Shown here one piece after another: positions 3,051 through 36,499 of a stretch of 64,000 nt of DNA. Location of the stretch: assembly GCF_003018255.1 (NCBI RefSeq), contig NZ_CP027440.1; one strand, given 5' to 3'. Source of the DNA: Escherichia coli. GTDB taxonomy: Bacteria > Pseudomonadota > Gammaproteobacteria > Enterobacterales > Enterobacteriaceae. Each line of letters begins with the position of its first letter. Positions within the stretch are counted from its first letter, which is position 1. The notes under the pieces are model-generated. The model did no database searches. It was given only the letters and a program-made list of their open reading frames with translations, and was not told the origin of the DNA. A program made the translations under genes and the position numbers.

Positions 3051-3097
3051 TGATGACTGCCGAGAACGTGCATTTTGTATGCCCATCCCAGCACGAC

Positions 3098-3132
<35 letters not shown>

Positions 3133-3225
3133 ATTTCGCCCGTAGGCAGTCATTAAATGGTTCTGATTACGCGGCTGACAATGTATCAGCCGCGATTCAC
3201 CTGCACTCGCAACGAGGTTCATCTT

Positions 3226-4437
3226 ATGTCGACTCGTACCCCTTCATCATCTTCAACCCGCCTGATGCTGACCATCGGGCTTTGTTTTTTGGTCGCTCTG
3301 ATGGAAGGACTGGATCTTCAGGCGGCTGGCATTGCGGCGGGTGGCATCGCCCAGGCTTTCGCACTCGATAAAATGCAAATGGGCTGGATATTCAGCGCCG
3401 GAATACTCGGTTTGCTACCCGGCGCGTTGGTTGGCGGAATGCTGGCGGACCGTTATGGTCGCAAGCGCATTTTGATTGGCTCAGTTGCGCTGTTTGGTTT
3501 GTTCTCACTGGCAACGGCGATTGCCTGGGATTTCCCCTCACTGGTCTTTGCGCGGCTGATGACCGGTGTCGGGCTGGGGGCGGCGTTGCCGAATCTGATC
3601 GCCCTGACGTCTGAAGCCGCGGGTCCACGTTTTCGTGGGACGGCAGTGAGCCTGATGTATTGCGGTGTCCCCATTGGCGCGGCGCTGGCGGCGACACTGG
3701 GTTTCGCGGGGGCAAACTTAGCATGGCAAACGGTGTTTTGGGTAGGTGGTGTGGTGCCGTTGATTCTGGTGCCGCTATTAATGCGCTGGCTGCCGGAGTC
3801 GGCGGTGTTCGCTGGCGAAAAACAGGCTGCGCCACCACTGCGTGCGTTATTTGCGCCAGAAACGGCAACCGCGACGCTGCTGCTGTGGTTGTGTTATTTC
3901 TTCACTCTGCTGGTGGTCTACATGTTGATCAACTGGCTACCGCTGCTTTTGGTGGAGCAAGGATTCCAGCCATCGCAGGCGGCAGGGGTGATGTTTGCAC
4001 TGCAAATGGGGGCGGCAAGCGGGACGTTAATGTTGGGCGCATTGATGGATAAGCTGCGTCCAGTAACCATGTCGCTACTGATTTATAGCGGCATGTTAGC
4101 TTCGCTGCTGGCGCTGGGAACGGTGTCGTCATTTAACGGTATGTTGCTGGCGGGATTCGTCGCGGGGTTGTTTGCGACAGGTGGGCAAAGCGTTTTGTAT
4201 GCCCTGGCACCGTTGTTTTACAGTTCGCAGATCCGCGCAACAGGTGTGGGAACAGCCGTGGCGGTAGGGCGTCTGGGGGCTATGAGCGGTCCGTTACTGG
4301 CCGGGAAAATGCTGGCATTAGGCATTGGCACGGTTGGCGTAATGGCCGCTTCTGCGCCGGGTATTCTTGTTGCTGGCCTGGCAGTATTTATTTTGATGAG
4401 CCGGAGATCACGAATGCAGCCGTGCGCCGATGCCTGA
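3226..4437 (+). CDS. mhpT: 3-hydroxyphenylpropionate MFS transporter
   Basis: ATG 3226 preceded by gagg SD; 403 aa (track ORF from 3157 is an upstream extension); multiple hydrophobic TM segments; recognised as MhpT. Confidence 0.9.
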   Translation: MSTRTPSSSSTRLMLTIGLCFLVALMEGLDLQAAGIAAGGIAQAFALDKMQMGWIFSAGILGLLPGALVGGMLADRYGRKRILIGSVALFGLFSLATAIAWDFPSLVFARLMTGVGLGAALPNLIALTSEAAGPRFRGTAVSLMYCGVPIGAALAATLGFAGANLAWQTVFWVGGVVPLILVPLLMRWLPESAVFAGEKQAAPPLRALFAPETATATLLLWLCYFFTLLVVYMLINWLPLLLVEQGFQPSQAAGVMFALQMGAASGTLMLGALMDKLRPVTMSLLIYSGMLASLLALGTVSSFNGMLLAGFVAGLFATGGQSVLYALAPLFYSSQIRATGVGTAVAVGRLGAMSGPLLAGKMLALGIGTVGVMAASAPGILVAGLAVFILMSRRSRMQPCADA

Positions 4438-4538
4438 CGCGCCTTATTAAGCAGGGGCGAAAGGGACTTGCCCCCAATACACCTACGGCGTTTACAGGTA
4501 TACTCGCTAAAAATTATTCAGCGGGTTTGGAAACAAAG

Positions 4539-5078
4539 ATGGCAAAACTTACCTTACAAGAGCAGTTGCTCAAAGCAGGATTAGTCACCAGCAAAAAAGC
4601 GGCGAAGGTCGAGAGAACGGCGAAAAAATCGCGCGTTCAGGCGCGTGAAGCTCGGGCGGCGGTAGAAGAAAATAAAAAGGCACAGCTTGAGCGTGATAAA
4701 CAGCTTAGCGAACAGCAAAAACAAGCGGCGTTGGCGAAAGAATATAAAGCCCAGGTGAAGCAGCTCATTGAAATGAACCGAATCACCATTGCCAATGGCG
4801 ATATTGGTTTTAACTTCACTGACGGCAATCTGATTAAGAAGATTTTTGTCGATAAGCTCACACAGGCGCAGTTGATTAATGGTCGTCTGGCGATTGCCCG
4901 CTTGTTGGTCGATAACAATAGCGAAGGTGAATACGCCATTATTCCCGCCAGTGTTGCCGATAAAATTGCTCAGCGTGATGCCAGCAGTATTGTGTTGCAC
5001 AGCGCGCTCAGCGCCGAAGAGCAGGATGAAGACGATCCGTATGCCGACTTCAAAGTGCCTGATGATTTGATGTGGTAA
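4539..5078 (+). CDS. yaiL: DUF2058 family protein YaiL
   Basis: ATG 4539 (MAKLTLQEQ...), 179 aa, Lys/Glu-rich N-terminus; track ORF from 4422 overlaps the mhpT 3' end. Confidence 0.85.
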   Translation: MAKLTLQEQLLKAGLVTSKKAAKVERTAKKSRVQAREARAAVEENKKAQLERDKQLSEQQKQAALAKEYKAQVKQLIEMNRITIANGDIGFNFTDGNLIKKIFVDKLTQAQLINGRLAIARLLVDNNSEGEYAIIPASVADKIAQRDASSIVLHSALSAEEQDEDDPYADFKVPDDLMW

Positions 5079-5091
5079 ACATAGATAAGCC

Positions 5092-5300
<209 letters not shown>

Positions 5301-5304
5301 ATGC

Positions 5305-6138
5305 TCAACGCATATTCAGTTTATTGGCGTGGTACGCAATATGCTCGCCAATAAAACTGGAGACAAAATAATAGCTGTGATCATAACCCTCGTGATAACG
5401 GATTAACGTTTTGATATTCATCTCCTGGCAGATCTTTTCAAGATTTGGAGTCCGCAGCTGTTCTGCGTAAAAATCATCACTCAACCCCTGATCAACCATT
5501 ATTTCCGCAACGCGTTGACCTTGTGAAATAAGACTCACCGGATCGTAATCCAACCAGGCATCTTTATTTTCACCAAGATATGCGGTAAAGGCTTGCTGTC
5601 CCCACGGTACTTGCGATGGGGAGACAATGGGCGCAAACGCCGAGACGCTGACATATTCATCTGGGTTACGTAACGCCAGCACCAGCGCGCCCAGCCCGCC
5701 CATAGAATGACCTGAGATAGACTTTCTGGTCGTTGCCGGAAAATGTTGCATCACTAAATCCGGCAGCTCGTTGCGGATATAGTCATACATTTTGTAATGT
5801 TCATTCCACGGCGCTTGCGTTGCGTTCAGGTAAAACCCGGCACCTTGCCCGAGATCGTAACGGTCGGCATCTGCGACATGACTGCCTCGCGGACTGGTGT
5901 CTGGCGCAACAACAATAATGTTGTGCTCAGCCGCGTAACGCTGCATCCCCGATTTAGTAATGAAATTCTGCTCGTTGCAGGTCAGGCCTGAAAGCCAGTA
6001 CAACACCGGCAATTTTTCATTTGCGGCTTTTGGCGGGAGATAGACGCCGACATTCATTTCACATTTCAGTGATGGGGAATAATGCCGATACACATTTTGC
6101 CAGCCGCCAAAGCTGGCATGTTTTTCAATGAGTTCCAT
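5305..6138 (-). CDS. frmB: S-formylglutathione hydrolase
   Basis: 277 aa; GHSMGG serine-hydrolase motif; recognised as FrmB. Confidence 0.95.
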   Translation of the reverse strand: MELIEKHASFGGWQNVYRHYSPSLKCEMNVGVYLPPKAANEKLPVLYWLSGLTCNEQNFITKSGMQRYAAEHNIIVVAPDTSPRGSHVADADRYDLGQGAGFYLNATQAPWNEHYKMYDYIRNELPDLVMQHFPATTRKSISGHSMGGLGALVLALRNPDEYVSVSAFAPIVSPSQVPWGQQAFTAYLGENKDAWLDYDPVSLISQGQRVAEIMVDQGLSDDFYAEQLRTPNLEKICQEMNIKTLIRYHEGYDHSYYFVSSFIGEHIAYHANKLNMR

Positions 6139-6229
6139 CAGTCATTATCTCACGGTTAATCCCCCGGACGGCTGCCCGGGGAGAGTATTAAGAACCCCGT
6201 CTGAACTGGACGGGTAAACCTGCGGGAAA

Positions 6230-7369
<1,140 letters not shown>

Positions 7370-7373
7370 TCAG

Positions 7374-7649
7374 CTATTTAAGATAGGCACGAACCAGTTC
7401 AATAGTGTCGTCAACGGATTGGCTGACTTCGCGGCTGTAGCAGTCATTTCGGTCAAACGTTTCCCGGATATGGCTTTCAAGCACTTCTGCCATCAGTCCG
7501 TTAGCCGCGCCCCGAACGGCAGCGATCTGTTGGAGTATGGCACGGCATTCGGCATCACCCTCCAGCGACCGTTCCAGAGCATCAATCTGCCCCCGAATAC
7601 GACGAACTCGAGTAAGGACCTTTTTCTTCTCTTCCGGAGTACTGGGCAT
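7374..7649 (-). CDS. frmR: formaldehyde-responsive repressor FrmR (CsoR/RcnR family)
   Basis: ATG at 7647-7649 ([10 protein letters not shown]...), 91 aa; track ORF extends 7 codons further upstream. Confidence 0.9.
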
Positions 7650-7672
7650 TTCGCACCTCATCATCTGCACGC

Positions 7673-7726
7673 AATATACTATAGGGGGGTATGTTATATG
7701 TCAATGCATACCCCCCTATAGTATAT
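7673..7726. promoter_or_regulatory. frmRAB promoter/operator inverted repeat
   Basis: Near-perfect palindrome tatactataggggggtat ... atacccccctatagtata directly upstream of frmR, with G/C tracts typical of CsoR/RcnR-family operators. Confidence 0.7.
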
Positions 7727-7833
7727 AACACTGGAGAATAAAATTTATCCGGTGAATGTAGTCGGATAACAAAAAGTAAAGAGGGGCCTAATCGACAGGG
7801 AAGGCCGCCCCGGATAGCGGGCGGCAGAAGGAA

Positions 7834-8607
7834 TCAGAATTTCCAGGTCAGATGGGCTGCAAGTTGCAGACCGTTATAATCATCGGTTGGGGTGTCGTAC
7901 CACACTTTACCTGCCGTCAGCCCGAGATTAAGTTGCTCAGTCAGCGGTTGAATACGTTGCAAACTGACGCTCTTCATGCTGCCGTAGCGTGTTTCTGGCG
8001 TCCAGTCATAGGTGTAAGCACCTGTTCCGCGGCTTAGCCATAGTTGCGTATAACCAGTGCCGCGCGGGTCATTCAGACGCACGGAAATCATATTGCTGTA
8101 ACTACCACCTGCATCGCTGGAGTCATAATGGGTATAGCGATAGCTGGTGATCACCGGGCCTGTATAGAGGGATACGCCGCCTTGCCAGGCATCGACTTCG
8201 ACATCATCGTAATATTTAGTGTAGCGATAACCGGTCGTGAAAAGCGTTTTTGGCAACAGGGCCAGGTTAATATCCTGACGAAAATCCTGGCGGGCAAAGA
8301 CCGGCGTATTATCCGCAAAGGCAATACCCGTTCGGGTTGTCAGCCAGTTATTCCATTTATACCAGACCGCACCCTGACCGCGAGTGGCATTGAAATGTTC
8401 AGTTTCATAATCACGACGCCCCTGGGAAAGATTAAAAAGCAGCGTTGCGTTTTCAACTTTCGCCACCAGTTCAGCATACGCTAAATTACGGTTGCCATGA
8501 TCGCCAGAATAATCGGTAAAATCGTAGCCCGCGGTAATGGAAGTTAACCCGGCATAAGCGGGCAATGTGCTAAATATTGCCGCCGCTAATAACGTCCGTT
8601 TTATCAT
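7834..8607 (-). CDS. yaiO: outer-membrane beta-barrel protein YaiO
   Basis: 257 aa; signal peptide MIKRTLLAAAIFSTLPAYA; alternating aromatic/hydrophilic strands; C-terminal ...HLTWKF. Confidence 0.85.
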   Translation of the reverse strand: MIKRTLLAAAIFSTLPAYAGLTSITAGYDFTDYSGDHGNRNLAYAELVAKVENATLLFNLSQGRRDYETEHFNATRGQGAVWYKWNNWLTTRTGIAFADNTPVFARQDFRQDINLALLPKTLFTTGYRYTKYYDDVEVDAWQGGVSLYTGPVITSYRYTHYDSSDAGGSYSNMISVRLNDPRGTGYTQLWLSRGTGAYTYDWTPETRYGSMKSVSLQRIQPLTEQLNLGLTAGKVWYDTPTDDYNGLQLAAHLTWKF

Positions 8608-8608
8608 T

Positions 8609-9319
8609 TTAATCTCCTGTACGGATAAGTTCTTGTCGGAGTGAATAAGTTCCGGTAGGTAAATTACGTTCTACAACCACGCGCGGGCCAAGTTGCGTGT
8701 TCGGGGAAATAATTCGCCCAGGCAAAATAATAACTTGTACGCCAAGGCGTGAACGCTGCCCGATATAACAACCTAATTTATCGCATCCGGTAGCGATAAT
8801 TCCCTCTGGAGTTCGAACAGACACGGGCTGTTCATCCAGACGATGATTACTGGTTCGTACTTGTGCGCCCAAATATGCCTGGTTTGCAACTACCGAGTCG
8901 GCAATAAAGCATTGCGGACCAATCGTTGCTTCCGCTTCAATAACCGCATTTTTAATTTCGGTGGCAAAACCAATTTTTACGCCATTGCTGATTATTGTGC
9001 CAGGACGAATAAACGCATAATTACCTATCAGGCAGTTTGCGCCAATCACTACCGGACCCTGAATAACGGCACCGTGGCAAATACGGGTATTCGCGCCGAT
9101 AACAACCTCACCGGCACTTTCATCAATAATCACCTGGTCTGCAATCTGAATATTTTTCTCTTTAACATTAAGCTTCAGATAGTTTTTCAGTTCCTGTGAC
9201 AGAAGGGTGGGAATAAGCGGTTGACGCTTCCACCAGTGCGGAATAGCGGGTGGGTTTGTCGCGCTGAGGTTCGCGTCCAGTAAAAAAGGCAATAAGTCCA
9301 TAAATAATCCAGATGGCAT
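8609..9319 (-). CDS. yaiX: hexapeptide-repeat (left-handed beta-helix) acyltransferase-like protein; start codon uncertain
   Basis: Uninterrupted 236-codon frame; repeated [LIV]-G-x-x-x-x-I hexapeptide units (VVIGANTRICHGAVIQGPVVIGANCLIGNYAFI...); upstream end overlaps the yaiP 3' end in another frame; candidate ATGs at 9319 and 9301 lack an obvious SD. Confidence 0.7.
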   Translation of the reverse strand: MPSGLFMDLLPFLLDANLSATNPPAIPHWWKRQPLIPTLLSQELKNYLKLNVKEKNIQIADQVIIDESAGEVVIGANTRICHGAVIQGPVVIGANCLIGNYAFIRPGTIISNGVKIGFATEIKNAVIEAEATIGPQCFIADSVVANQAYLGAQVRTSNHRLDEQPVSVRTPEGIIATGCDKLGCYIGQRSRLGVQVIILPGRIISPNTQLGPRVVVERNLPTGTYSLRQELIRTGD

Positions 9320-10364
9320 AAGCTAATAATACATACACAACGGAAAGCGGTGCTAAAGGCACCAACAACCAGCAACGATGAAACCAGGCGCTAAATGCAC
9401 CAATAACACAAACTACGCCGACCCAGATAAGCGGGAACATTGCCAACACCACACCATGTGGCCCGGTGGTGATGAATTCATTAAACCAGGTAGTGAGATA
9501 AATCCCAACGCCATAAAGCACAACCAACAGCATAGGAAATATACTGAAGATACCGAAGCGGCTAAATAAAAGTCTTTTATGCAGGCGCATACAGACCGCG
9601 TAGCCCACAATCCAACGCCGCCAGCGACGCCATTCCTCACGCGGGCTGTTGCATTCCTGTGGGTATACGATGCAGCGATTCGCCTGCCGAATACGATAGC
9701 CGTTTGCCACCAATGTCCAGGTGAGATCAAGGTCTTCGACTTTAGTACGATCAGAGAAACCGAACTTACGCAATACATCAGTACGGAACATCCCGCAGGC
9801 ACCGCTGATAATAAACGGTGCGCCGCCCAGGAGCTGCTGTAGCGTGCGCTTCATAACAATCATCGGCAACTTTACGGTCGCGCGGATGTGCGGTAACAGA
9901 CCCGCGCCTTTCAACGCAGTAGAGGGAATGCCGCCTACGGCATCAGCACCGCGCTCTATTTCTGCCAGCATATAGCCCATTCCGTCTTGATCGGGCGGAA
10001 CATAGGTGTCGGCATCATTTAAAAAAACCTGATCGCAGGTGGCGTAATTGAGGCCATTCATTAGCGCACCACCTTTACCGGTATTTTTTTGCGTGACGGC
10101 AATAAAGCGGTCGCCCCATTTGCGTTTGACTTCCGCCATGACCGCTTCGGTATTGTCCGTGGAGCCGTCGTTAACGCAAATTACCCGGCAGAAATAAGGG
10201 TTACGCAGCAGATTATCCAGTGACTGCGCCAGACACGGGCCTTCGTTATAAGCAGGTATAATGGCGTCAATACAGCCTTTCTTTTGGCTGGGCTTACGCC
10301 TTAACGTACTCAGAAACCATAGCAATATTGCTACGGCCATACATATAAAGATCCAGGTTTTCAT
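9168..10364 (-). CDS. yaiP: family-2 glycosyltransferase with N- and C-terminal membrane segments
   Basis: 398 aa; DxD-like NDAD motif, REEWRRWRRW resembling the QxxRW motif of processive GT2 synthases; hydrophobic C-terminal third. Confidence 0.85.
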   Translation of the reverse strand: MKTWIFICMAVAILLWFLSTLRRKPSQKKGCIDAIIPAYNEGPCLAQSLDNLLRNPYFCRVICVNDGSTDNTEAVMAEVKRKWGDRFIAVTQKNTGKGGALMNGLNYATCDQVFLNDADTYVPPDQDGMGYMLAEIERGADAVGGIPSTALKGAGLLPHIRATVKLPMIVMKRTLQQLLGGAPFIISGACGMFRTDVLRKFGFSDRTKVEDLDLTWTLVANGYRIRQANRCIVYPQECNSPREEWRRWRRWIVGYAVCMRLHKRLLFSRFGIFSIFPMLLVVLYGVGIYLTTWFNEFITTGPHGVVLAMFPLIWVGVVCVIGAFSAWFHRCWLLVPLAPLSVVYVLLAYAIWIIYGLIAFFTGREPQRDKPTRYSALVEASTAYSHPSVTGTEKLSEA

Positions 10365-10373
10365 GCAATTTGC

Positions 10374-11060
10374 TCAAAGAATCATTTTATGAATAACAAA
10401 ACCTTCACCCAGATCGCTATTGACCTGTTGCCCGCGAAATTGAGCAACTGCACGCAGACGCTCCGGGCGCATATAATCTCGCTGGCTCTGACTTTTATGT
10501 TTTTTTAACGCAGTCAGTTTAAGAGAAAAATATTCTTCTTTCACGGATTCAAAAACCTGAGGCATAAATGAAAGCCAGGTACTTGGTGTTTCATAGCCGA
10601 GAATTTGCGGAATAGCGCGACAGGCAACCATTGAGGCTTGATAGACTGCAAGATGATCCTGATGGCGGTCAGCATCATGCATGGTATATACACGTATAAT
10701 TTCAATATCAGAGGGAATTTGATTTTTTATGATATTTTCCAGGGCAGAAATCATATCATTGAGCTGTAAATGAGCGCGGGTGTCAGCAAAATTAAGATGA
10801 ATAGTTTGGTGGCACCCTAATATCTTTAGAGCGTTGCGTGATTCTTCGTGGCGATCGATTATTCCATCTACGCCAGAATTACCGGTAGTCATCACCACGG
10901 TAGCAATATAAATTCCTTTTTGCGCAAGGCGAGCTAGCGATGCGCCACAGCCTAATTCTATATCGTCAGGATGCGCGCCAATGGCAAGGATACCCTTTCT
11001 TTTATTTGCCGAAGAAAGGATCGCTGAATCTAAAACCTTATCCACTTTATGACACTCCAT
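10374..11060 (-). CDS. yaiS: PIG-L/LmbE-family deacetylase
   Basis: 228 aa; GAHPDDIELGCG zinc-deacetylase signature near N-terminus. Confidence 0.85.
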   Translation of the reverse strand: MECHKVDKVLDSAILSSANKRKGILAIGAHPDDIELGCGASLARLAQKGIYIATVVMTTGNSGVDGIIDRHEESRNALKILGCHQTIHLNFADTRAHLQLNDMISALENIIKNQIPSDIEIIRVYTMHDADRHQDHLAVYQASMVACRAIPQILGYETPSTWLSFMPQVFESVKEEYFSLKLTALKKHKSQSQRDYMRPERLRAVAQFRGQQVNSDLGEGFVIHKMIL

Positions 11061-11651
11061 TTTATTTATTATACTACAAGCACAACGACGCCCGCAGAGA
11101 CGTAACCTCTGACGCAGACAGATGCTAATTTTTAAGTGTTAAAAATAGCTGATAGCTGAAAAACAAGGGGCTGCCAGGTACGGGGATAAGACTGTATAAT
11201 CTTTATGTAGTTCATATGTTAAGTGTTTGTGTGTTTGGTTTGTATGGTTATTTTGTTTTATATATTGTATTTAAATGTGATTTAGTTTGTCAATTAATTG
11301 CATATTAAAAATATGTTCTATGCACAAATATGGGTTATATACATTATGTGAATGTATTATGTGGTTGATTGAGAATGATACAGTTATATATGCAATGTGA
11401 ATATAATGGTTTCATTATATGTATTGCTGTTAATAAAATAAAAGACATTATAATCTGCTTGTTTATGCATTAATAAAATGAAGTGCAGTAACTTACTGAA
11501 TTGTCAGAGTGGGTGTAATTGCATATTTAATCTTTCCTTTGCCACTTTTTCGCTAAGAATAAAATCATCTGTGCGATAACAACTAATTCTTTTAATGAAT
11601 GTTTTTATTCCTGAATACTGCTCCCATAACAAGACAGGGGAGCAGACAATC

Positions 11652-12614
11652 ATGGCAATTTCATCGCGTAACACACTTCTTGCCGCACTGGCATTCATCG
11701 CTTTTCAGGCACAGGCGGTGAACGTCACTGTGGCGTATCAAACTTCAGCCGAACCGGCGAAAGTGGCTCAGGCCGACAACACCTTTGCTAAAGAGAGCGG
11801 GGCGAGCGTTGACTGGCGTAAGTTTGACAGCGGAGCCAGCATCGTGCGGGCGCTGGCTTCTGGCGACGTGCAAATCGGTAACCTCGGTTCCAGCCCATTA
11901 GCGGTGGCAGCCAGCCAACAGGTGCCGATTGAAGTCTTCTTACTGGCGTCAAAACTGGGTAACTCCGAAGCGCTGGTGGTGAAGAAAACTATCAGCAAAC
12001 CGGAAGATCTGATTGGCAAGCGCATCGCCGTACCGTTTATCTCCACCACCCACTACAGCCTGCTGGCGGCGCTGAAACACTGGGGTATTAAACCTGGGCA
12101 AGTGGAGATTGTGAACCTGCAGCCGCCCGCAATTATCGCCGCCTGGCAGCGGGGAGATATTGATGGTGCTTATGTCTGGGCACCGGCGGTTAACGCGCTG
12201 GAAAAAGACGGCAAGGTGCTGACCGATTCTGAACAGGTCGGGCAGTGGGGCGCGCCGACGCTGGACGTCTGGGTCGTGCGGAAAGATTTTGCCGAGAAAC
12301 ATCCTGAGGTCGTGAAAGCGTTCGCTAAAAGCGCCATCGATGCTCAGCAACCGTACATTGCTAACCCAGACGCGTGGCTGAAACAGCCGGAAAACATCAG
12401 CAAACTGGCGCGGTTAAGCGGCGTGCCTGAAGGTGACGTTCCGGGGCTGGTGAAGGGGAATACCTATCTGACGCCGCAGCAGCAAACGGCAGAACTGACC
12501 GGACCGGTGAACAAAGCGATCATCGACACCGCGCAGTTTTTGAAAGAGCAGGGCAAAGTCCCCGCCGTGGCGAATGATTACAGCCAGTACGTTACCTCGC
12601 GCTTCGTGCAATAA
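11652..12614 (+). CDS. tauA: taurine ABC transporter periplasmic binding protein
   Basis: ATG 11652 (MAISSRNTLLAALAFIAFQAQA signal peptide), 320 aa; track ORF from 11595 is an upstream extension. Confidence 0.93.
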   Translation: MAISSRNTLLAALAFIAFQAQAVNVTVAYQTSAEPAKVAQADNTFAKESGASVDWRKFDSGASIVRALASGDVQIGNLGSSPLAVAASQQVPIEVFLLASKLGNSEALVVKKTISKPEDLIGKRIAVPFISTTHYSLLAALKHWGIKPGQVEIVNLQPPAIIAAWQRGDIDGAYVWAPAVNALEKDGKVLTDSEQVGQWGAPTLDVWVVRKDFAEKHPEVVKAFAKSAIDAQQPYIANPDAWLKQPENISKLARLSGVPEGDVPGLVKGNTYLTPQQQTAELTGPVNKAIIDTAQFLKEQGKVPAVANDYSQYVTSRFVQ

Positions 12615-12626
12615 AAGGAGGCGCAG

Positions 12627-13394
12627 ATGCTGCAAATTTCTCATCTTTACGCCGATTATGGCGGCAAACCGGCACTGGAAGATATCAACCTGACGCTGGA
12701 AAGCGGCGAGCTTCTGGTAGTTCTGGGGCCGTCTGGCTGCGGCAAAACCACCTTGCTGAATCTGATTGCCGGTTTTGTGCCTTATCAGCATGGCAGCATT
12801 CAACTGGCGGGTAAGTGCATTGAGGGACCGGGAGCAGAGCGGGGCGTGGTTTTTCAGAATGAAGGGCTGTTGCCGTGGCGTAATGTGGTAGACAACGTGG
12901 CGTTCGGCCTGCAACTGGCAGGTGTAGAGAAAATGCAGCGACTGGAAATCGCACACCAGATGGTGAAAAAAGTGGGGCTGGAAGGCGCAGAAAAACGCTA
13001 CATCTGGCAGCTTTCCGGTGGTCAACGTCAGCGGGTGGGGATTGCCCGCGCGTTGGCGGCAAATCCCCAGCTGTTATTACTCGACGAACCGTTTGGTGCG
13101 CTGGACGCCTTCACCCGCGACCAGATGCAAACCCTGCTGCTGAAACTCTGGCAGGAGACGGGAAAGCAGGTGCTGTTGATTACCCACGATATAGAAGAAG
13201 CGGTGTTTATGGCGACTGAACTGGTTCTGCTTTCACCCGGCCCAGGCCGTGTGCTGGAGCGGCTGCCGCTCAACTTTGCTCGCCGCTTTGTTGCGGGAGA
13301 GTCGAGCCGCAGCATCAAGTCCGATCCACAATTCATCGCCATGCGCGAATATGTTTTAAGCCGCGTATTTGAGCAACGGGAGGCGTTCTCATGA
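12627..13394 (+). CDS. tauB: taurine ABC transporter ATP-binding protein
   Basis: 255 aa; Walker [13 protein letters not shown] signature LSGGQRQR, Walker B LLLLDEP. Confidence 0.95.
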
Positions 13395-14218
13395 GTGTGC
13401 TCATTAATGAAAAACTGCATTCGCATCGGCTGAAATGGCGCTGGCCGCTCTCGCGTCAGGTGACCTTCAGCATTGGTACGTTAGCGGTTTTGCTCACTGT
13501 ATGGTGGGCAGTCGCGGCGCTGCAACTGATTAGCCCGCTGTTTTTACCGCCACCGCAACAGGTACTGGCAAAACTGCTCACCATTGCCGGGCCGCAGGGA
13601 TTTATGGACGCCACGCTGTGGCAGCATCTGGCAGCCAGCCTGACGCGCATTTTGCTGGCGCTACTCGCGGCGGTGTTGATCGGTATTCCGGTCGGGATCG
13701 CCATGGGGCTAAGCCCGACGGTGCGCGGCATTCTGGATCCGATAATCGAGCTTTATCGTCCGGTGCCGCCGCTGGCTTATTTGCCGCTGATGGTGATCTG
13801 GTTTGGTATTGGCGAAACCTCGAAGATCTTACTGATCTATTTAGCGATTTTTGCGCCGGTGGCGATGTCGGCGCTGGCGGGGGTGAAAAGCGCGCAGCAG
13901 GTTCGCATTCGTGCCGCCCAGTCGCTGGGTGCCAGCCGTGCGCAGGTGCTGTGGTTTGTCATTTTGCCCGGCGCGCTGCCGGAAATCCTCACCGGATTAC
14001 GCATTGGTCTGGGTGTGGGCTGGTCTACGCTGGTGGCGGCGGAGCTGATTGCCGCAACGCGCGGTTTAGGATTTATGGTTCAGTCAGCGGGTGAATTTCT
14101 CGCGACTGACGTGGTGCTGGCGGGGATCGCGGTGATTGCGATTATCGCCTTTCTTTTAGAACTGGGTCTGCGCGCGTTACAGCGCCGCCTGACGCCCTGG
14201 CATGGAGAAGTACAATGA
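13391..14218 (+). CDS. tauC: taurine ABC transporter permease
   Basis: 275 aa, polytopic; ATGA overlap with tauB and tauD. Confidence 0.95.
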
Positions 14219-15066
14219 GTGAACGTCTGAGCATTACCCCGCTGGGGCCGTATATTGGCGCACAAATTACGGGGGCCGACTTAACGCGCCCGTTAAGCGA
14301 TAATCAGTTTGAACAGCTTTACCATGCGGTGCTGCGCCATCAGGTGGTGTTTCTGCGCGATCAAGCTATTACGCCGCAGCAGCAACGCGCGCTGGCCCAG
14401 CGTTTTGGCGAGCTGCATATTCACCCTGTTTACCCTCATGCTGAAGGGGTTGACGAGATCATCGTCCTGGATACCCATAACGATAATCCGCCGGATAACG
14501 ACAACTGGCACACCGATGTGACATTTATTCAAACGCCACCCGCAGGGGCGATTCTGGCGGCGAAAGAGTTACCCTCGACCGGCGGCGATACGCTCTGGGC
14601 CAGTGGTATTGCCGCATATGAGGCGCTCTCTGTTCCCTTCCGCCAGCTGTTGAGCGGGTTGCGTGCGGAGCATGATTTCCGTAAATCGTTCCCGGAATAC
14701 AAGTACCGCAAAACCGAGGCTGAGCATCAACGCTGGCGTGAGGCGGTCGCGAAAAATCCACCGTTGCTACATCCGGTGGTGCGAACGCATCCGGTGACCG
14801 GTAAACAGGCGCTGTTTGTGAATGAAGGCTTTACCACGCGAATTGTTGATGTCAGCGAGAAAGAGAGCGAAGCCTTGCTGGGCTTTTTATTTGCCCACAT
14901 CACCAAACCGGAGTTTCAGGTGCGCTGGTGCTGGCAACCAAATGATATTGCGATTTGGGATAACCGCGTAACCCAGCACTATGCCAATGCGGATTACCTG
15001 CCACAGCGGCGGATAATGCATCGGGCGACGATTCTTGGGGATAAACCGTTTTATCGGGCGGGGTAA
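14215..15066 (+). CDS. tauD: taurine dioxygenase (alpha-ketoglutarate-dependent)
   Basis: 283 aa; recognised as TauD, with His-x-Asp metal-binding region WHTDVTF. Confidence 0.95.
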
Positions 15067-16606: not shown

Positions 16607-19576
<2,970 letters not shown>

Positions 19577-24939: not shown

Positions 24940-24984
24940 CAGAGGATTGGGCGTTCTGGGGGCTGACAAAGTGCTCGTTGTTTT

Positions 24985-25087
24985 TGCCGGATGCGGCGCG
25001 AACGCCTTACCCTGCCTACAAAATCATGCAAAATCAGTATATTGCAATTATCTGGTAGGCCTGATAAGCAAAGCGCATCAGGCAATC
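24985..25087. repeat. REP pair (BIME) between yaiZ and ddlA
   Basis: gccggatgcggcgcgaacgccttaccctgcctac and gtaggcctgataagcaaagcgcatcaggc in inverted orientation. Confidence 0.7.
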
Positions 25088-25141
25088 TTACGTTTGCCAT
25101 CAGTCTTAAATGCCCAATAAAAGTTATCAGGCATTTAAAAA

Positions 25142-36361: not shown

Positions 36362-36386
36362 AAAAACCAGGCAATTGGTGCATCAT

Positions 36387-36472
36387 GCCTGATGCGACGC
36401 TTGCCGCGTCTTATCAGGCCTACAAAATGAGCAACCCGTAGGCCGGATAAGGTGTTCACGCCGCATCCGGCA
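36387..36472. repeat. REP pair (BIME) between mak and araJ
   Basis: gcctgatgcgacgcttgccgcgtcttatcaggcctac ... gtaggccggataaggtgttcacgccgcatccggca. Confidence 0.8.
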
Positions 36473-36499
36473 ATAAGCAACGTGCACCGTGACAGTAAT

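Follow-up and report, generated by a model that had tools for sequence, protein, structure and literature searches.

The gene yaiX of Escherichia coli has been described in more than one form. In a survey of 58 KEGG E. coli genomes (Hongu et al., 2026; PMC13058169), strains were sorted into groups with a 236-aa product, with a 71-aa product (K-12) and without yaiX, and overexpression of either YaiX form was found to raise ampicillin resistance; the gene was also noted to be without a Shine-Dalgarno sequence. In the annotation of MG1655 (NC_000913.3), yaiX (b4579) is a two-piece pseudogene, with the 1,331-bp element IS2A (381260-382590, carrying insC1/insD1) between the two pieces, as an earlier note on the DNA studied here had stated. 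Both the intact 236-aa gene and the truncated K-12 form are, in other words, already published (PMC13058169). With regard to the neighboring genes yaiO, yaiP and yaiS, which together with yaiX form a four-gene cassette, a search of a literature collection returned lists and promoter surveys only and no characterisation. Among described operons, the one with which this cassette can be compared in outline is pgaABCD, which is responsible for poly-beta-1,6-GlcNAc: in both, a membrane GT2 glycosyltransferase related to PgaC/IcaA, a deacetylase and an outer-membrane barrel are encoded in one operon.

The DNA analysed here, a 64-kb stretch of an E. coli genome (hereafter, the window), carries the intact form of yaiX. 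In the list of window open reading frames (ORFs) with their translations, yaiX begins with ATG, contains no internal stops and runs unbroken for 236 codons, and the translated product matches the Pfam Hexapep model (PF00132) in two stretches with 67.1 bits (gathering score 27), which bears out the continuous hexapeptide-repeat frame seen in the earlier note. The locus is flanked by frmRAB on one side and by tauABCD on the other, and yaiO, yaiP and yaiS lie on the same strand as yaiX (Table 1). The gene is the same, and of the same length, as the one encoding the 236-aa YaiX of Hongu et al. (2026), whose phenotypes come from overexpression only; the window represents one more instance of it, with nothing substantive that is different, and the presence of an intact yaiX is thus a correct but ordinary, documented strain difference. 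Taking all the evidence below together, we are highly confident that the window derives from a natural E. coli strain outside the K-12 lineage, with an ancestral, never-interrupted yaiX; that IS2 entered codons 99-101 of this gene in the K-12 lineage, duplicating ATTAC; and that the intact product, of approximately 230-236 aa, is a predicted standalone left-handed beta-helix (LbH) acyltransferase encoded by the third gene of yaiS-yaiP-yaiX-yaiO.

Table 1. Features of the window discussed in the text (window coordinates).
Feature	Position	Strand	Description and basis
yaiO	7834..8607	-	Outer-membrane beta-barrel, last gene of the cassette; Pfam YaiO PF19413; NCBIfam TIGR04390, 184 bits
yaiX (maximal ORF)	8609..9319	-	236 aa plus stop; predicted standalone left-handed beta-helix (hexapeptide-repeat) acyltransferase
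ATTAC	9020..9024	.	Unoccupied IS2 target site, codons Gly99-Asn100-Tyr101 of yaiX; junction comparison
yaiP	9168..10364	-	Membrane GT2 glycosyltransferase, distantly PgaC/IcaA-like; Pfam Glycos_transf_2, 97 bits
yaiS	10374..11060	-	PIG-L family deacetylase, first gene of the cassette; Pfam PIG-L PF02585, 86.8 bits; 228-codon full-length ORF
yaiT/ehaB	16607..19555	+	Autotransporter; continuous 982-codon ORF, IS3B absent; annotated as ehaB in neighboring genomes

Among proteins of known structure, YaiX is closest to the C-terminal LbH domain of ST0452 from Sulfolobus tokodaii, an amino-sugar-1-phosphate acetyltransferase domain of the archaeal GlmU type (2ggo, 5z09; E=8e-23, residues 69-224), and further homologues among the solved LbH proteins include GlmU, QdtC and PerB-type N-acetyltransferases, so that the kinship with LbH domains is unambiguous from sequence. 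With the LbH domain of ST0452 and GlmU, YaiX shares a hexapeptide-repeat beta-helix that is alignable over 156 residues; unlike these enzymes, it shows no N-terminal nucleotidyltransferase domain, given that the models of archaeal-type bifunctional GlmU enzymes, the best NCBIfam matches of YaiX, align with their C-terminal part only, that all scores are far under the equivalog cut-offs (NCBIfam TIGR03992, Arch_glmU: E=1.6e-37, model positions 233-393 of 393, 129 bits with a cut-off of 292; NF041173: model positions 228-400 of 405, 121 bits with a cut-off of 600), and that the entire protein comprises only 230-236 aa. Judging from these matches, YaiX is predicted to be a standalone LbH acyltransferase devoid of the nucleotidyltransferase domain. 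With respect to the active site, Asn331 of ST0452 aligns with the invariant Asn158 of YaiX, and His308 and Tyr311 of ST0452 align with the invariant Pro135 and Phe138, respectively, in a pairwise register that is uncertain in a repeat protein. His308 is the residue that we take to be the catalytic histidine of the acetyltransferase site. This conserved histidine has no equivalent at the aligned position of YaiX, where Pro135 is invariant across 17 homologues, so the chemistry of YaiX may differ from that of the GlmU-type enzymes. The invariant Ser-Asn-His-Arg at residues 157-160 (residues 135-160 correspond approximately to window 8840-8917) may supply a catalytic histidine.

A database search yielded 530 YaiX homologues; among them are proteins from Citrobacter, Salmonella and Enterobacter with lengths of 193-233 aa, as well as a metagenomic family of approximately 205 aa with about 50% identity. 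An alignment of 17 of these sequences, reaching down to 49% identity, contains 52 invariant columns, among them G134-P135, C137-F138 and T156-S157-N158-H159-R160, whereas W29-W30 is nearly invariant. The distant members of the family begin with 'MWW...' and the enteric ones with 'MDLLPF...', which corresponds to Met7 of the window ORF. Because the enteric homologues start at this methionine, the true start of yaiX is likely to be the ATG at 9301, giving 230 aa in agreement with the MG1655 annotation, rather than that at 9319. The 197-aa version with a CTG start that PGAP chose for the human isolate JNE23-011 was rejected as too short, as it would drop the nearly invariant tryptophan pair. Relative to the distant homologues, enteric YaiX proteins are about 21 aa longer at the N-terminus, and the DNA coding for this extension lies inside yaiP.

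The maximal yaiX ORF shares 152 nt with the 3' end of yaiP (window 9168-9319), or 134 nt when counted from the ATG at 9301, and none of the candidate starts of yaiX in the window sequence is preceded by a Shine-Dalgarno sequence; for these reasons, yaiX may be expressed weakly or in a manner coupled to yaiP. A programmed frameshift at GAA-AAA-CTA, by which translation would pass from yaiP to yaiX, was considered in thought only and was set aside as unnecessary, because distant homologues have an ordinary ATG and an overlap of 14 nt. These features of the gene start, namely the missing Shine-Dalgarno sequence, the ambiguity that leads annotators to pick 197, 230 or 236 aa, and the 134-152 nt shared with yaiP, combined with the proline in place of the GlmU/ST0452-type histidine and with the doubts about native expression also voiced in PMC13058169, could be taken to imply that the yaiX ORF, although unbroken, does not function as a gene, being untranslated or catalytically dead and kept only by the short time elapsed or by the overlap with yaiP. 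We consider this unlikely. The window and K-12 versions of yaiX differ synonymously at 9 codons and non-synonymously at 3 (dN/dS ~0.11), and outside the yaiP overlap by 9 synonymous and 2 non-synonymous changes (dN/dS ~0.07), small numbers that are nevertheless consistent with purifying selection. Moreover, the family is kept down to about 50% identity with its 52 invariant positions, the S-N-H-R motif among them, and the four-gene order is kept in a distant genome in which the overlap is 14 nt only. Furthermore, the start of yaiO is coupled to the stop of yaiX: the yaiO ATG lies 1 nt past the yaiX TAA, and the AGGAG Shine-Dalgarno sequence of yaiO is located within the 3' end of yaiX.

As for the origin of the intact allele, the window is colinear by BLAST with MG1655 371,832-439,064 across its full 64 kb, and the earlier note had named a gap of ~1.3 kb at yaiX as the expectation and a gapless alignment at this position as the result that would speak against it. 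The alignment does break at IS2A: window 3092-9024 corresponds to MG1655 375327-381259 and window 9019-15066 to MG1655 382590-388646, so that IS2A is skipped exactly and the gap amounts to 1,336 bp, that is, IS2A plus one 5-bp target duplication. At the junction, MG1655 reads ...CATAATTAC[IS2A]ATTACCTATCAGG and the window ...CATAATTACCTATCAGG. The ends of IS2A in MG1655 lie between duplicated copies of ATTAC (CATA-ATTAC-TAGACTGGCCCC...GGGGCAAATCCA-ATTAC-CTATCAGG), whereas the window has CATA-ATTAC-CTATCAGG at the same point, with a single ATTAC. None of the hallmarks of IS2, namely an element of ~1.33 kb, InsC/InsD, a 5-bp duplication and terminal inverted repeats, is present at yaiX in the window. 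The two genomes share the locus and its neighbors (frmR-yaiO on one side and yaiP-yaiS-tauA on the other), with flanking DNA that is 94.6-97.5% identical, and differ in the element and in the copy number of ATTAC. When IS2A and one ATTAC are removed from MG1655, a 236-codon yaiX ORF results, the product of which differs from the window protein by 3 aa; because this deletion regenerates a continuous frame, IS2A is the sole lesion in the K-12 yaiX. The duplication of ATTAC in MG1655 as opposed to the single ATTAC in the window is the signature of transposition into K-12, not of loss in the window.

The distribution of the two alleles points in the same direction. Of 5,426 complete E. coli genomes, 4,461 have an uninterrupted yaiX site as detected with a 200-bp probe spanning the empty target, and their alleles share 96.5-100% identity with that of the window; a 200-bp probe for the MG1655 yaiX/IS2A junction detected 362 genomes, and a stricter 70-bp probe 367, with a single copy per chromosome; approximately 500-590 genomes had no match at the yaiX locus. 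These classes match the three groups of Hongu et al. (2026). Sixty of the 367 junction-bearing genomes were looked at by name, and all of the 120 junction rows inspected had either names typical of K-12 or chromosomes of a K-12-like size (MG1655, W3110, BW25113, DH5alpha, C600, J53, MC4100, O16:H48 and others), a few of them with field-sounding labels. Thus, yaiX::IS2 is a derived allele of the K-12 lineage, and intact yaiX is the ancestral and common state. The earlier note had held that the absence of the element restores a potentially functional gene, which inverts the polarity: given the single ATTAC and the excess of intact over IS2-bearing genomes, nothing has been restored. A true restoration would have occurred if the source lineage had once carried IS2 in yaiX and had lost it by precise excision, an event that is expected to leave a single ATTAC as well, so that the target site alone cannot decide the matter. 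Precise excision of IS2 is rare. Given, in addition, that the occupied allele is found in only about 367 genomes, those sampled being K-12 derivatives, against 4,461 with the empty site, and that the window is not close kin of K-12, we regard such a history as very improbable and retain the never-interrupted ancestral yaiX as the preferred reading. In two non-K-12 genomes (NZ_CP074576.1 and NZ_CM143910.1), the yaiO-yaiP query matches in two pieces, and ISVsa5, which is IS4-like, is annotated at that match; other IS can evidently strike the cassette independently.

Neither IS2A nor the other element considered, IS3B, has a counterpart anywhere in the 64-kb window: sensitive blastn searches with both sequences gave a best E of 0.25, with no match touching the IS2 ends, and tblastn searches with their four transposase ORFs gave a best E of 0.37. 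Hidden copies of other IS families were likewise rejected, as all window stretches of at least 40 bp align to MG1655 except for a single one of 1,533 bp (16701-18233) that is situated inside the continuous yaiT/ehaB ORF. The searches and the alignment coverage hence agree with the earlier note, which had seen no transposase-like ORF or IS terminal repeat in the window. In MG1655, yaiT (b4580) is annotated as split by IS3B (391709-392966). The window YaiT and the reconstructed K-12 YaiT, which are 64% identical at the amino acid level, form one full-length blastp alignment that runs unbroken across codon 486, the site of IS3B in K-12, so that the second gap anticipated in the earlier note, of ~1.26 kb at yaiT, is established from the protein alignment and not from nucleotides, because the alleles are too divergent there for blastn. 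The yaiT/ehaB of the window is a strongly divergent allele, with a central 1.5 kb that is unalignable to MG1655 at the DNA level.

Over its full length, the window is 92.9-98.0% identical to MG1655, and the closest complete genomes are those of the human isolates JNE112863 and JNE23-011, with 99.6% identity over 25 kb. Although a 64-kb window without any IS, in which both MG1655 IS sites are empty, is what an engineered or evolved IS-free K-12 of the MDS42 type with IS2A removed from yaiX would offer, this origin is barely conceivable and is effectively excluded by the 93-98% identity to MG1655 where ~100% is expected of a K-12 derivative, by the different yaiT allele with its 64% amino acid identity, and by the natural human isolates that are its nearest genomes. 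Thus, where the earlier note had left the choice between an IS-free and a non-MG1655 lineage, the second stands and the first, in the sense of an engineered K-12, falls.

The identity to MG1655 is uneven along the window: it is 94.6% for yaiX-yaiP-yaiS-tauABCD (window 7800-15066), 92.9% from hemB to the 5' end of yaiT, and 97-98% in the remainder. For yaiO-yaiP, 84 of 4,958 matching records are at least 99% identical to the window. The allele in the window is a minority one and may have been obtained through recombination. Where the window and MG1655 differ slightly in length, the differences coincide with REP/BIME-like extragenic repeats (window 3092-3131, 5088-5304, 24940-25107, 36370-36477, 56157 and 63212). 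MG1655 is about 365 bp longer in the mhpE-mhpT interval, in a tandem array of ~100-bp units, and contains, near tsx and yajO, segments of 137 bp and 123 bp that the window lacks.

Contextual information suggests that yaiX belongs to a coherent gene group. In the window, all four cassette genes are arranged head to tail on one strand, with the start of yaiP 9 nt from the stop of yaiS. A metagenome-assembled genome (L005) shows the order PIG-L, GT2, LbH, YaiO around a YaiX homologue of 52% identity, where genes overlap by 4 and 14 nt, and a YaiO gene also follows a second homologue (L007). Because the complete order recurs in the former and the LbH-YaiO pair in the latter, yaiS-yaiP-yaiX-yaiO can be considered a conserved unit. 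In K-12, yaiX is not the only member of this unit that is damaged. Relative to the 228-codon ORF of the window, the K-12 yaiS (MG1655 383936-384631) is interrupted by TAA at codon 5 and by TAG at codon 191, along with small compensating indels around codons 191-201. The second stop costs K-12 a C-terminal segment of 38 residues, which is conserved in the PIG-L protein of the distant genome L005 (4249-4881; 51% identity). The yaiS stops add to yaiX::IS2, so that the K-12 cassette is damaged in two genes, whereas all four genes of the window are intact. In JNE23-011, the PIG-L gene (L004 5884-6261, corresponding to window 10683-11060) is marked by PGAP as a partial pseudogene; this call is probably an annotation artefact, because the DNA is 100% identical to the uninterrupted 228-codon ORF of the window.

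As for the function of the cassette, several hints are offered by the families of its products, from which we infer roles for YaiS, YaiP, YaiX and YaiO on a GlcNAc-containing product. YaiP, which matches the PgaC_IcaA model TIGR03937 with E=1e-28 and 100 bits (equivalog cut-off 422), would make this product; deacetylation by YaiS would free its amino group; YaiX might use acyl-CoA to acylate or acetylate the amino sugar freed by YaiS; and YaiO could handle the product at the outer membrane. The proposed sequence of steps resembles the deacetylate-then-reacylate logic of LpxC/LpxD. The parallel with pgaABCD is one of resemblance only: the cassette contains a PIG-L/LmbE deacetylase rather than the CE4 enzyme PgaB and a YaiO barrel rather than PgaA, it is without PgaD and has an extra LbH acyltransferase, and its GT2 enzyme falls short of the PgaC/IcaA equivalog, so that every one of the components by which pgaABCD would be recognized is missing. 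We tentatively suggest, as an idea that could well prove wrong, that the intact cassette may encode an uncharacterised envelope pathway, kept from E. coli to distant bacteria, in which a PgaC-like GT2 enzyme, a PIG-L deacetylase, an LbH N-acyltransferase and a barrel of its own would deacetylate and then reacylate a GlcNAc-containing glycan or glycolipid. Two lesions in the K-12 copy, IS2 in yaiX and a nonsense codon in yaiS, may explain why such a pathway would have gone unstudied.

For a genome scan, the intact yaiX matters little: the window is non-K-12, and the K-12 pseudogene is a lineage-specific IS casualty that is already on record. With respect to the biology of E. coli, K-12 is a poor reference for yaiS-yaiP-yaiX-yaiO, as two of the genes are damaged there, whereas in most natural E. 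coli all four appear to be undamaged and subject to purifying selection. Whatever the product of the cassette may be, it would be better sought in a strain like that of the window than in K-12.
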